From Verrucomicrobiota bacterium (GTDB lineage Bacteria; Verrucomicrobiota; Verrucomicrobiia; Limisphaerales; UBA11358), in contig JBEKRQ010000001.1 in the NCBI GenBank assembly GCA_049517655.1, forward strand, positions 661,438 to 725,437: a DNA stretch of 64,000 nucleotides, given 5' to 3'. A model generated the notes under the pieces. It did no database searches. It was not told the origin of the DNA and worked only from the letters and a program-made list of their open reading frames with translations. Of the stretch, positions 264 through 12,238 are shown piece by piece. Position numbers and translations under genes: made by a program. Position 1 is the first letter of the stretch, and each line of letters opens with the position of its first letter.

Positions 264-400
264 CATCACGCGTGCTATGGTTGGCGTGTAAAGTTCAAAT
301 AACCCCGGCTGTCTCGGCGCTAAAGAGGTTTCAGGCACGCCTTTTTAAGAATGGTTTGTCAACCATCACGAGGGCTATGGTTGGCGTGTCGAGTTCAATT
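264..400. repeat. Two ~37-nt direct repeats (264-300 and 364-400), exactly 100 nt apart, bracketing junction element E4
   Basis: catcacg-NNN-gctatggttggcgtgt-NN-agttcaa-Nt occurs twice with about 5 mismatches by eye. A degenerate E-like stretch precedes copy 1. Confidence 0.6.
334..366 (-). repeat. Cassette-junction element copy E4. It is the terminal copy and no Rhs sequence follows it.
   Basis: + strand ggcacgcctttttaagaatggtttgtcaaccat. Nearly identical to E3 (one extra A). It lies just downstream (minus sense) of the stop of ORF 395-655. Confidence 0.7.
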
Positions 401-655
401 ATCACGCAAACTTTGGCTTGTGCCAAGCATGAATCGCGGCACAAACCTGACCACAATAAATCCCAGCGCGATGCTTATGATCGAACCACCAATAAACACC
501 GCACCGATAAGCGTGGTGTTTTCTTTGTGCAAAAATAGTAATATGCAACCTATCGGCAGAAATATAGCACCGCTGACTATGCATGAAATGCCGATGATCT
601 TGCTGAGGATTGGGATCAACTTCTTGACGAGGTATTCTGGTGGTCTTGGTAACAT
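395..655 (-). CDS. Small hydrophobic membrane protein (86 aa, about 2-3 TM). Possibly an immunity gene left behind by a lost orphan module.
   Basis: ORF-track protein is dominated by hydrophobic stretches (ISCIVSGAIFLPIGCILLF, LIGAVFIGGSIISIALGFIVV). It is co-oriented with the Rhs array and is the last ORF before E4. Confidence 0.4.
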   Translation of the reverse strand: MLPRPPEYLVKKLIPILSKIIGISCIVSGAIFLPIGCILLFLHKENTTLIGAVFIGGSIISIALGFIVVRFVPRFMLGTSQSLRDN

Positions 656-747
656 AGCGTGTAATTTTGTCAGACTATATCACTCGACGCATCATTGCGC
701 CGGGTGTCTGACTTCTCGTCTAATCTTGTTAGGCGGCATGGCTCTCA

Positions 748-984
748 TCACCTTGAAGTGAACCAAAAGAAAATGGCACAAGCAATCCATGAAACACCTA
801 AAACCACAACCATCCACGGCTTGTAGTCTCTACTCTTACTCCCATACGCCGGAAATTGCTTGCGCCTCTCTTCATTCCAAATCTTCTTTTCTAGCCACTT
901 AAAACCGACAAGGATCAGCTTGCTAAATACGATAAATATGATGCCAAGCACCAAAAAGACAATTGCTGGAGTTTTTGCGTTCAT
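748..984 (-). CDS. Small 2-TM membrane protein (78 aa). Candidate immunity for the Gly-rich tip of orphan module 6.
   Basis: Starts 25 nt after the stop of ORF 1010-2125. Two hydrophobic helices (AIVFLVLGIIFIVF, WMVVVLGVSWIACAIFFWF) flank a charged loop. Confidence 0.5.
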   Translation of the reverse strand: MNAKTPAIVFLVLGIIFIVFSKLILVGFKWLEKKIWNEERRKQFPAYGSKSRDYKPWMVVVLGVSWIACAIFFWFTSR

Positions 985-1009
985 GCGTCAAAGCTCCTAT
1001 AATTTATAA

Positions 1010-9852: not shown

Positions 9853-10666
9853 TGCTGTAAATGGCTGTAACGTGCCCTTTCGAATCACTAACAACAGCCA
9901 TACCGGTAAAAGCTATTAACGAATTAATGTCGAGGTAGCGAGTATCTCCATAAATTCGTGCGGTTTCTCCGTTCTTTGTGGTGAAAATCCGAAGCGGCTT
10001 TCCATAAAGCTTCTCAATGTCTTCTGTGTTCATGCCGAGATTAGCACGGCAACCATCATAACGCTTGGATAATTCCTCATTAATTTCATAGCCCTTCTCA
10101 AGCTGCGGCAGCCCCCGCCATAAATAACCCGAAAGTAAAAAAGCGGGCAGTATGTTGAGCGGCTCCATTCCCGCCCCGCTATACGGTTTTAAATCATTGA
10201 CTATTTCATCACGAGTCAACGCCGAAGCATCAATTATTTTCGTGATACTCCCGTTAATCGCCGGATCATCAATATCCCATGATTTAGCCCGTGTTGCAGT
10301 AGTTCCTCGATATGGATAAGTTTCTATTAATTCTGGAAATGAGAATGGCTTGATTATCTTAAACAGCATTTTATCTCGGAATAGAAGCCAAAAACTAGGA
10401 CCGTCAGCATTTCGCACAAAGCAGCTAATTAACGTATAGTTCCCACCTGTTTCCGCGACTGTGAATGAGTGACTAGCCGCAATTCCAAATGTATTTCTTA
10501 CCATATCAAGAGACGTCCCATTTGTAATTGCTAAAAAGGTCTTTTCAGGAACAGTTAACCTCTTGACCATTGAATTGATATGCCTGTACCGTGAGGTACA
10601 GCCATATAAAACAAACATCATCAATAAAACAATGCTTGTTAGAATACTTATGTGTTTAATTTTCAT
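9821..10666 (-). CDS. Putative lipoprotein (281 aa). Candidate immunity for the PLA2-like tip of module 2.
   Basis: Signal peptide with lipobox (MMFVLYG-C). Starts 11 nt after the stop of ORF 10677-12206. Confidence 0.55.
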   Translation of the reverse strand: MKIKHISILTSIVLLMMFVLYGCTSRYRHINSMVKRLTVPEKTFLAITNGTSLDMVRNTFGIAASHSFTVAETGGNYTLISCFVRNADGPSFWLLFRDKMLFKIIKPFSFPELIETYPYRGTTATRAKSWDIDDPAINGSITKIIDASALTRDEIVNDLKPYSGAGMEPLNILPAFLLSGYLWRGLPQLEKGYEINEELSKRYDGCRANLGMNTEDIEKLYGKPLRIFTTKNGETARIYGDTRYLDINSLIAFTGMAVVSDSKGHVTAIYSNGFFNDEWKK

Positions 10667-10676
10667 TTGAGCCTTT

Positions 10677-12206
10677 CTAATTACAACAAGCGCACTTCGC
10701 AGCCGAAAGATCAGGAAAATCGTCAGTTCGAGAGTTGCCTATGTTGATGAACCGATGTTGTTTGCGGCAGTAATACTTTGGACCTGTACTAGGTTGGTTA
10801 ACCATACACGCCAACACGCTTAAATTGCATATCTCGCATGGAGTAAATGTGACAGGGATACCGTGCGCTAGCTGGTCTAGTTTATAAAGTGTTGACGCCC
10901 AAGAGGAAGCAGAACAATTATTTTGATCAAAGCATTGATCATGCTGGGCGCAGCACCTCAAACCACCATCACTAGTGATTGGATTAGGTATCGGGCCAAT
11001 ACCGTCACACGCTGGGCAATCCAAACCCAGAGGATCATATTGGCTCACCGGATTATTGAGCACGAAAACATAGATGAGACCAGTTTGAATTATACTGGCA
11101 TTTTCTAGGCCAGCAATGTTTGGAGAACTGTGGATAAATTTCCGAACTGCATCCAAAGCAGCCAGCATAAACTCGCTCAATTTTTCGGGAGGCGGTCTTG
11201 GTCTGTTCGCTACAACTTCAAATCCAAGCTCACCAAACGGATCTTGATTCAAAAATCTTCCAACGGCTGGTTCGTAATAGCGATAACCATAGTAGTAAAG
11301 GCTCGTTTCCCAGTCATAAAATTTTGTAGCCCCCAAAAATGGGTTAATTTTAGATAACGGACCAGTTGCACGGATTACCTGCAGGAACGGATCGTATTCA
11401 TATTGCGCAACAATCATCCCGTTGGCCGCATTGACCAACGCCATGACATTTCCGTTGCCGTCATAGGCATAGAAATACGTTCCCGCATTCGTCCCCGCAT
11501 ATATCGTCATCGAAATGAGACCACCCACCCCACCGGCTCCTTGCAAGCTGCCACTCAAATCCGTCCCCCAAGTAAAGCTTTGCAGTAGATTATTGTTCCC
11601 GTCGAGAACAGCGATGAGATTCCATCCGTCATACACGAATTTGTTGGTGGATTGAGGAACGTAATTTGAACCATTCCACGATGAAACTATCTTCTGTATC
11701 CGCCGGAACTTGGCATCATACTGGTAATCAATCTTTTGCTTGGCTGCACTGGCAACGTTTGTCTGGCTGGTTATTGATATTAACCTATTCTCCGCGTCCC
11801 AAGTATAACTCCATAATCCATCATTCGTTAAATTGCCATCCGAATCATAAAGAGGAGTTTGATTGTATGGAGGGAACAGAATGTTGCCAGTGGCGCTGTT
11901 ACCGCCAGCATTGATACTTACGCTTTGCCAGGTCGGCCCTAAAGTGTTTGTAATGGTTATTTCACTTTCAAAATACTCCACTTTGCGAAGTGCCGTGTTG
12001 CTGTTGACGGTAACAGTGTTTGTGGCAATGGCTACGCCCAAGATGGACTTATAACCCGGGGTTACGATGTTTGTATATTGATTGAGGGAATTGGCATTGT
12101 AGGGAATCGTCCGTAGGTTTCCGCCACTGGCATCGCCACCAAATTTTGCAGTAGTCCTGTTGCCAATATTGTCAAACGTGTAATCAAACTGCTGTCCGGC
12201 AATCAT
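10677..12206 (-). CDS. Orphan Rhs module 2 (509 aa) with a 114-aa Cys-rich tip carrying a CCxxHDxC (PLA2-type) motif
   Basis: Starts MIAGQQFDYTFDNIGNRT. Core resembles module 4. It ends NNPVSQYDPLGL, followed by DCPACDGIGP...GLRCCAQHDQCF... (10677-11021). Confidence 0.8.
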   Translation of the reverse strand: MIAGQQFDYTFDNIGNRTTAKFGGDASGGNLRTIPYNANSLNQYTNIVTPGYKSILGVAIATNTVTVNSNTALRKVEYFESEITITNTLGPTWQSVSINAGGNSATGNILFPPYNQTPLYDSDGNLTNDGLWSYTWDAENRLISITSQTNVASAAKQKIDYQYDAKFRRIQKIVSSWNGSNYVPQSTNKFVYDGWNLIAVLDGNNNLLQSFTWGTDLSGSLQGAGGVGGLISMTIYAGTNAGTYFYAYDGNGNVMALVNAANGMIVAQYEYDPFLQVIRATGPLSKINPFLGATKFYDWETSLYYYGYRYYEPAVGRFLNQDPFGELGFEVVANRPRPPPEKLSEFMLAALDAVRKFIHSSPNIAGLENASIIQTGLIYVFVLNNPVSQYDPLGLDCPACDGIGPIPNPITSDGGLRCCAQHDQCFDQNNCSASSWASTLYKLDQLAHGIPVTFTPCEICNLSVLACMVNQPSTGPKYYCRKQHRFINIGNSRTDDFPDLSAAKCACCN

Positions 12207-12209
12207 TTT

Positions 12210-12238
12210 GGCACGCTTCTTAAGTATGGTTTGTCAAC
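12210..12238 (-). repeat. Cassette-junction element copy E1
   Basis: + strand ggcacgcttcttaagtatggtttgtcaac. It lies between the immunity stop (12258) and the module-2 ATG (12206). Confidence 0.65.

Follow-up and report, generated by a model that had tools for sequence, protein, structure and literature searches.

How does a short sequence foreign to rhs genes come to lie at several internal boundaries of an orphan rhs array? The question is raised by a 64,000-nucleotide stretch of contig JBEKRQ010000001.1 from a Verrucomicrobiota bacterium (positions 661,438 to 725,437 of the forward strand; this whole stretch is termed the window), in which a full-length Rhs toxin gene is followed by six orphan modules. 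The short sequence, here designated E, reads GTTGACAAACCATTCTTAAAA(A)GGCGTGCC on the gene (minus) strand. Comparison with other loci indicates that E is the head, that is the first ~30-45 nt, of a lineage-specific, mosaic and hairpin-bearing intergenic repeat of ~200-330 nt. The three internal copies, E1 to E3, are probably relics of former locus ends that became internal when blocks of rhs modules were stacked by recombination in the homologous Rhs core together with illegitimate joins or duplication. The meaning of the locus is more ordinary than had been proposed in a sequence-only reading, which took E for the attachment site of integron-like circular units. What is present is an orphan Rhs array and a mosaic extragenic repeat, both of known kinds.

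A Hamming scan with every copy as probe found exactly four E in the 64 kb, all in the same orientation and all within the rhs array, which bears out the earlier observation of a ~30-nt element present four times at cassette boundaries. The 29-mer first proposed, searched with at most 3 mismatches, matched 2058-2086 and 12210-12238, with 0 matches expected from shuffled sequences. The coordinates first given for E1 and E2 were correct, but the ends of E3 and E4 had been placed 3 nt too far. The copies, primed where the head is joined to an Rhs fragment, are:

12198-12238, minus strand: E1', the 29-nt E (12210-12238) plus 12 element-derived nt (AAAATGATTGCC), fused to orphan module o2
6348-6389, minus strand: E2', diverged, E (6360-6389) plus GAAATGATTGCC, fused to orphan module o4 at AGQEF
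2058-2086, minus strand: E3', a head cut at nt 29 and fused to orphan module o6 within GTGCC
334-363, minus strand: E4, the terminal head at the distal end of the array

E3 and E4 were rightly described as nearly identical, since a single A is the only difference, and they alone carry GGCG where every other copy has AGCG. E1 and E2 are the most diverged of the four copies, and E2 is separated from E4 by 5 differences. Each copy lies 0-31 nt behind a candidate immunity open reading frame (ORF), as had been noticed: E1 begins 19 nt past the stop of the 126-amino acid ORF that follows o1, E2 begins 15 nt past the 109-amino acid ORF that follows o3, E3 overlaps the TGA of the 131-amino acid ORF that follows o5, and E4 begins 31 nt past an 86-amino acid ORF, the last small membrane ORF after o6. 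The different points of entry into Rhs also stand, with E1 and E2 entering at AGQ(Q/E)F and E3 at VPQYTNRF, and E4 does close the array, with non-Rhs DNA behind it. Because the copies differ by a 1-nt indel (A4 vs A5), the frame of the short stub 'MVDKPFLK' behind E4 is not conserved and E is non-coding; a coding role was ruled out by the indel together with an extension that lacks frame conservation.

The genes of this region are all on the minus strand. The features of the array are as follows:

Adhesin-like gene of 1971 amino acids, in the ORF map of the array region
15254-20758, minus strand: full-length Rhs of 1834 amino acids, with a signal peptide, YD shell and C-terminal toxin (Pfam RHS_repeat and TEN_YD-shell)
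14372-15220, minus strand: immunity candidate of the full-length Rhs, a 282-amino acid ORF directly downstream
1010-14332, minus strand: orphan Rhs-CT modules o1 to o6, each followed by a candidate immunity ORF
12605-14332, minus strand: o1, immunity ORF at 12258-12638
10677-12206, minus strand: o2, immunity ORF at 9821-10666
6751-9894, minus strand: o3, immunity ORF at 6405-6734
4827-6356, minus strand: o4, immunity ORF at 4318-4839
3045-4361, minus strand: o5, toxin split by a frameshift (2494-3048), immunity ORF at 2082-2477
1010-2125, minus strand: o6, small membrane ORFs at 748-984 and 395-655

When the six fragments were aligned, they shared a common core up to the DPxGL region and had unrelated tails. 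The locus is an Rhs orphan array, with a full-length Rhs and its immunity gene followed by core-sharing fragments that differ in their C-terminal domains. The modules themselves are of two sorts. The E-headed o2 and o4 are 509-amino acid 'X-type' orphans, 64% identical to each other, and each is followed by one of the E-less 'Y-type' orphans o3 and o5, whose cores are much more alike by eye in a protein alignment (79-86% nucleotide identity in ungapped 300-nt windows). This period-two pattern, in which the order E, no E, E, no E is matched by the order of core types, points to duplication of a two-cassette super-unit with later replacement of its toxins, rather than to six cassettes acquired one by one. 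The core ORF of o5 (3045-4361) stops just past the DPF motif and a separate 184-amino acid ORF (2494-3048) lies in another frame; the o5 toxin domain is probably frameshifted.

The junctions between E and Rhs are of two types. At E3 the sequence reads ...AAAAGGCGTGCC|GCAATACACC where other Rhs copies read ...TCTTATGTGCCGCAATACAC, with GTGCC common to both partners; the E3 form ...GGCGTGCC|GCAATAC compares with ...TATGTGCCGCAATAC in Rhs. E1 and E2 go on for 12 nt past E (RAAATGATTGCC) and break at ~nt 41, and this extension matches the type-C copies of the repeat at two other loci, L009 and L014 (...GCGTGCCAAAATGATGCCAAGCGG; comparison loci bear L numbers). Because these 12 nt are also element-derived, E has no fixed right edge and cannot be regarded as a discrete 30-mer. 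The E1/E2 junction reads ...GCGTGCCAAAATGATTGCC|GGACAG, compared with ...AAAATGATGCCAAGCGG in the element and ...CCCGT(C/T)GCCGGACAG in Rhs, with (T)TGCC shared, and E1' reads ...TTGCC|GGACAG into o2. The break point differs, at nt 29 in E3 and ~nt 41 in E1 and E2, and in each case falls inside 3-5 nt of GC-rich microhomology. A variable break inside microhomology is a signature of illegitimate joining. E1' and E2' have the junction in common, although 8 of their 41 positions differ. E3' appears to have been made from the local E4-type copy, because GGCG is unique to E3 and E4.

At the other three of the six orphan junctions, those before o1, o3 and o5 (~14372/14332, 9821 and 4318), there is no E or remnant of it. 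At these E-less junctions (14332-14372, 9810-9894 and 4310-4361) the immunity stop meets the Rhs fragment within 0-10 nt. The modules o1 and o5 enter the core at nearly the same residue (..VGQI(T/V)F..), and several database orphans start near VGQITF or just upstream of AGQQF; there are hints of preferred break regions in the Rhs core.

The nature of E became apparent from other loci. When loci were oriented and de-duplicated, homology started at nt 1 of E and ran downstream, while the upstream DNA was unrelated in all pairs but one. The exception is L007 and L018, whose upstream DNA is 80% identical over ~390 nt; in L018 this similarity stops ~180 nt before E. Downstream, homology extends for 36, 52, 81, ~125, ~190 or ~300 nt or more, depending on the pair. 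With an nhmmer profile of the long ('type B') copies, all head-containing copies started at model position 1 and had ragged right ends (29, 34-41, 39, 45-47, 97, 120-131, ~190-205 and ~300). Because homology begins at nt 1 and the right ends are ragged, E is best regarded as the sharply bounded head of a longer mosaic element. Among the four copies in the window, only E4 retains the rest of the repeat, and E1-E3 are truncated heads. From the head, the order of modules is E, an 8-bp hairpin (TTCATGCC-AAAG-GGCATGAA, z = -2.1), an A-rich stretch, a stem-loop, and further conserved blocks and hairpins. The stem of the stem-loop occurs in several versions (CCTTGC/GCAGG, TCCCGC/GCGGGA and CCTGC/GCAGG, with GCTTC/GAAGC in the window), and a second compensatory stem is GGGTGTTG/CAACACCC or GGCTGCG/CGCAGCC; these versions were read directly from the sequences, without statistics. 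The pairing of several hairpins is kept despite differing stems, around conserved loops such as GGGAGGnTTnTTTCACTC. RNAalifold gave no consensus fold for a mixed alignment of bodies, a fold of type B alone gave a weak structure, and E itself has neither dyad symmetry nor a fold (minimum free energy 0 kcal/mol, with 200 of 200 shuffles folding at least as well). A known RNA family was considered and rejected: in 12 loci and the window, Rfam had no match on the element at gathering score and only chance-level ones at E<=10.

In a sister subfamily, E is replaced by another head, 'head2' (TTGAACnnnACACGCCAACCATAGCAC...GTGCCAATGAAAA), and the body is common to both. Both heads are found around the end of the array:

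364-398, minus strand: head2 motif, TTGAACnnnACACGCCAACCATAGC...GTGATG, with a direct repeat at 250-299, so that E4 is bracketed
1-333, minus strand: remainder of the repeat behind E4, with a 35-nt spacer, head2 (250-299) and a diverged body (1-249), continuing past the window edge

The body behind E4 contains the hairpins GCTTC/GAAGC and GGGTGTTG/CAACAACCC. Past the window edge, L003 and L035 add ~150 nt of body, followed by a glucuronoyl-esterase gene and another head2-body copy, which lacks E. The head2 motif also stands ahead of E in L008 and L021. Two tandem E-type copies with a 213-nt period occur in L020, with a third, head2-type copy 2.4 kb off. Further members of the two-headed family were seen at L003 5660-5985, L020, L021 and L041 19600-19870. 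L041 has a fusion with the opposite order of partners, between an Rhs fragment and a head2-body copy; judging from this case, the junctions between Rhs and the repeat would arise by deletion or illegitimate joining.

On the opposite strand of E and its hairpin, nearly all copies carry two direct TGGCAYG repeats exactly 11 nt apart (TGGCATGAACTTGGCACGC), for instance at L007 1063-1090 (read in reverse). The pair resembles a sigma-54 -24/-12 pair or the direct-repeat site of a response regulator. With a sigma-54-like reading, however, transcripts would go antisense into the immunity genes. The TGCC of these repeats is where both types of Rhs junction in the window are located.

A role in expression would be another reason for E to be kept at the heads of orphans, where it could serve as a promoter, a translation start, or a terminator or insulator between modules. 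E contains a perfect TTGACA and lies directly behind immunity stop codons; moreover, the element-derived AAAATGATT gives the ATG of the o2 and o4 ORFs, E1' thereby providing the start of the 509-amino acid o2 ORF. Nevertheless, this function is distinctly unlikely. There is no -10 box at the right spacing, and neither a sigma-70 promoter nor an intrinsic terminator coincides with any E. E is unstructured, o1, o3 and o5 lack it, and E1 and E2 are decaying rather than conserved. In most genomes, furthermore, no close co-oriented gene lies behind E.

The distribution of E outside the window was examined in several collections. A scan of species-representative genomes found E in one metagenome-assembled genome (MAG) only, Verrucomicrobiota SPRUCE 441, with two copies in the scanned contigs. 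Both copies close an rhs locus: each stands after its final immunity gene, and no Rhs comes next. The distance from that gene to E is 25 nt in L002, where the Rhs is full-length and stands alone, and 63 nt in L001/L004, which hold an rhs array. In L001 and L002, E is followed first by ~45 conserved nt and next by a convergent 3-deoxy-D-arabino-heptulosonate 7-phosphate (DAHP) synthase gene, entered at its 3' end; the gene is complete in L002 and a ~110-nt remnant in L001. One metagenome scan, in which loci were fetched with a pattern fixing 23 of the 29 E positions, yielded 26 E loci, all from peatland samples; two of them, L003 and L010, are the window's own sequence. Altogether, in ~16 distinct loci of peat Verrucomicrobiota, the head is at the distal end of an rhs toxin/immunity locus in ~10 and after unrelated genes in ~5. 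Rhs and immunity genes precede E in the window, L001/4/24, L002/5/28, L008/23, L013, L018, L021 and L022. The genome in which the closest relative of o4 was found, L041, also has an E-like head at the distal end of its array, and L007, with upstream DNA similar to that of L018, is probably a further site of this kind. E is outside an Rhs context in L026 and at four further loci:

L014: E between efp and a small conserved gene
L017: E beside the start of an oppositely oriented gene for a large secreted protein
L019: E after a Sel1-repeat protein
L027: E after a 970-amino acid NPPY-motif gene, restriction-modification-like by eye, with no Pfam hit

No E was present in L039, L040 and L042, other verrucomicrobial rhs loci sampled from the Rhs side. 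A viral origin was rejected, with 0 matches in viral contigs. E is neither a genome-wide repeat of the repetitive extragenic palindromic (REP) kind nor exclusive to rhs, but a rare motif found mainly at distal rhs ends. It had been asked whether E always lies between an immunity stop and an Rhs fragment, and this is not the case. Elsewhere E is mostly locus-terminal, and more than 20 fetched loci have E with no Rhs behind it, which upholds the view that E is not Rhs-derived. Among the loci found, internal copies occur only in the window's genome; the other rhs loci with E have one terminal copy, alongside zero to several orphans.

These observations bear directly on the proposal that E is an attachment site, at which circles of Rhs fragment, toxin and immunity gene insert through a recombinase encoded elsewhere, in the manner of integrons, integrative mobile elements exploiting Xer (IMEX) or pdif modules. 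Four co-oriented copies at unit boundaries, the terminal copy included, would fit such a mechanism, as would the very sharp left boundary of E beside variable DNA at every locus. Moreover, L002 and L027 are the same chromosomal site as judged by the DAHP-synthase gene, and the DNA to the left of E is Rhs and immunity genes in L002 but the 970-amino acid NPPY gene in L027. However, neither locus has a second E across the variable segment, and a reading of the segment as an att-flanked island was rejected because no second E is on its other side. The crossover differs between copies (nt 29 vs ~41) and falls inside microhomology, E is a part of a longer repeat with no dyad or fold of its own, and the single terminal E of other genomes is present irrespective of the orphan count. 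The three units bounded by four sites that were first described are actually six orphan modules, and three of their six junctions lack E. Nor does the n+1 pattern single out site-specific insertion: if the locus ends in a given flank and each stacked block brings along or duplicates the first bases of that flank, n+1 results as well. The lack of a visible recombinase was confirmed in the window, for ~50 kb upstream, and for 8 kb beyond E4: no recombinase-like ORF was seen by eye among ORFs of >=180 amino acids at 26.6-64 kb, and no recombinase Pfam hit was obtained in called genes within 10 kb either side of o2 or 8 kb beyond E4. Taken together, insertion at an attachment site is highly improbable. 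Integron arrays and the rAID-1 orphan-immunity arrays of Bacteroidales, in which repetitive intergenic sequences are reminiscent of integrons (bioRxiv 10.1101/471110), likewise consist of toxin-defence genes separated by a recurring short sequence. However, those systems have an adjacent tyrosine recombinase and the repeat at every gene boundary, whereas here no recombinase is seen, half of the boundaries carry the repeat, its break points are inconstant and an attC-like fold is lacking.

The block formed by E, 45 nt and the 3' end of the DAHP-synthase gene was seen at L002 6720-7923, L027 4068-4489 and L001 1669-1860. The L001 copy is at a different chromosomal site, behind another rhs array. 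Because the same block is found at differing sites, it appears that a block including the flank has moved between loci.

Exchange of Rhs toxin and immunity genes is thought to proceed by homologous recombination in the conserved core, leaving displaced orphans behind (PMC3967940, PMC10539506). Displacement of this kind is insufficient here, as the sequence-only reading had argued, for a junction of E with Rhs cannot arise by it alone. The preferred explanation is that E1-E3 are relics of former locus ends. An ancestral locus would have ended in the repeat, and E4 would represent this normal locus end. Blocks made up of an Rhs core fragment, a toxin, an immunity gene and the first bases of the flank would then have been added on the upstream side of older modules. 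In each event, the left end would have been resolved by homology in the Rhs core, and the right end by an illegitimate join, or an unequal or slipped duplication, that connected the repeat head to the Rhs core through 3-5 nt of microhomology. A join just past the immunity stop would leave no E, while a join 29-41 nt into the head would leave an E'. E3' would have been made locally from an E4-type copy. E1' and E2' would derive from one older junction with a type-C head, which was duplicated in the two-cassette super-unit and then diverged. The anatomy of the array, the truncations, the microhomologies and the distribution in other genomes are direct observations with which this sequence of events would agree.

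Homology-facilitated illegitimate recombination combines one homologous anchor with a microhomology join. The scars in the window would fit this process (the term is used in PMC6382021 and PMC8116780), with the Rhs core as the homologous side and the 3-5 nt of GC-rich microhomology as the other, or they would fit unequal sister exchange. The process is deduced here from two junction types only, and unequal exchange within a genome leaves the same scars.

Several points weigh against this explanation. In more than 15 unrelated contexts, E starts at the same place to within ~3 nt, a precision that a passive flank would not predict. Five of the six pattern-free positions of E are invariant, although the apparent 99% identity of E is inflated because the fetch pattern fixed 23 of its 29 positions. 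The exact left edge and the invariance point to binding of E by some factor, or to present or past mobility of the repeat. The identical junction of E1' and E2' requires either common descent, which is awkward with cores that are 64% identical, or a recurrent microhomology event. With only two independent junction types, the microhomology argument has an n of 2. Finally, no intermediate arrays were found, and the same array was present wherever the strain was inspected. The array was identical in all 23 contigs inspected for o2 and all 22 for the 131-amino acid immunity protein that precedes E3, out of >100 and 61 blocks listed in the assembly-collection indexes, respectively, a 797-kb contig included. 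This immunity protein had no homologues beyond itself, so no donor locus was traced.

If the repeat is mobile, its precise left terminus would be explained directly. The repeat would be a small, non-autonomous mobile element, perhaps moved by RayT, with E as its left terminus; copies would have inserted independently behind immunity genes, and three of them would later have been clipped by Rhs recombination. The terminus is precise in unrelated contexts, including upstream of efp in L014, and the copies in L020 are in tandem. RayT-type Y1 transposase genes are extremely abundant in the communities concerned, with more than 7000 close homologues in the protein collection, and in L007, L042 and L047 they neighbour an rhs gene or an E element. 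Solo terminal repeats of RayT also lie 5-35 nt upstream of E in L001, L026 and L027. The RayT sites are:

L007 1415-2440; L043-L047; L042 9365-9712

In L007 the RayT gene is 160 nt past the E element, and in L047 it is 150 nt past a 2086-amino acid Rhs gene. L042 has a truncated RayT gene, bracketed by a 33-nt direct repeat, between two Rhs orphans. The element itself was considered as a RayT pseudogene, and blastx found nothing.

Despite these associations, the right ends of the repeat are ragged and undefined, and neither an inverted E nor a target duplication was seen. The RayT genes are flanked by a different repeat, the 26-nt inverted repeats AAACGGGTCAGTTCTTGATATTGACA and TGACAATATCAAGAACTGACCCGTTT. 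Just two copies of E occur in the scanned contigs of one MAG, and no pair of empty and filled sites was found. The association with RayT is a lead, not evidence, and an origin of the repeat by mobility is possible albeit unlikely. Such an origin would be compatible with the stacking of relic-bearing blocks preferred here, and may be its first step.

A related possibility is that E is the recognition sequence of a trans-acting enzyme, likeliest an HUH (Y1) transposase of the RayT type, that marks the 3' edge of a cassette and promotes shuffling between rhs loci. Recognition would account for the exact left edge, the near-invariance and the tight link to rhs ends, and if true it would represent a dedicated exchange of polymorphic-toxin cassettes without a linked integrase. 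This role is very unlikely for E. Were the head to prove an enzyme recognition site, it would hint at a new route for toxin-cassette exchange.

The repeat is an undescribed family that marks the ends of rhs loci in uncultured peat Verrucomicrobiota, and the intact repeat is probably a 3'-flank element similar to REP sequences and bacterial interspersed mosaic elements (BIMEs). These elements and the neisserial intergenic mosaic elements (NIMEs) are likewise extragenic, sit for the most part at gene 3' ends, and combine short modules in various ways, including hairpins whose stems change in a compensatory manner. NIMEs cluster near silent cassette loci. The repeat shares with REP/BIME its extragenic, modular hairpin units and the presence of RayT-type Y1 transposase genes in the same genomes. 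In contrast to them, E is non-palindromic and rare, and it is not the repeat that flanks RayT genes in inverted orientation. The E head is also far from high copy, with 2 in the scanned MAG contigs and 4 in the 64 kb, all in the rhs array, and it is tied far more tightly to rhs locus ends than would be expected of a generic REP. As it stands, the repeat is a boundary marker useful for annotating rhs loci.

The array itself resembles the orphan rhs-CT/rhsI arrays of Enterobacteriaceae, such as Salmonella, E. coli and Serratia, which likewise have a full-length rhs with toxin and immunity genes followed by displaced fragments, each with a part of the core, a different toxin and its own immunity gene (PMC3967940, PMC10539506). 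The differences are that the array is in Verrucomicrobiota, that it has six orphans, and that 29-41-nt relics of the locus end stand at three junctions; relics of this kind are not described in the two papers. Orphan arrays are usually explained by core homology alone, and the non-homologous resolution of the right end is rarely visible. As scars, the relics would indicate that microhomology joins closed at least two of the events and that duplication involved blocks of several cassettes.

Among the comparison loci, L029-L038 are the same sequence as positions 1-21000 of the window, and several contigs break within o3, presumably because of the repeated cores. The array is flanked by housekeeping genes such as those for PNPase, TilS, PfkA, DnaJ and GrpE, recognized by eye. 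The sole Rfam hit at gathering level in the window is a tRNA gene at 47562-47634 on the plus strand.

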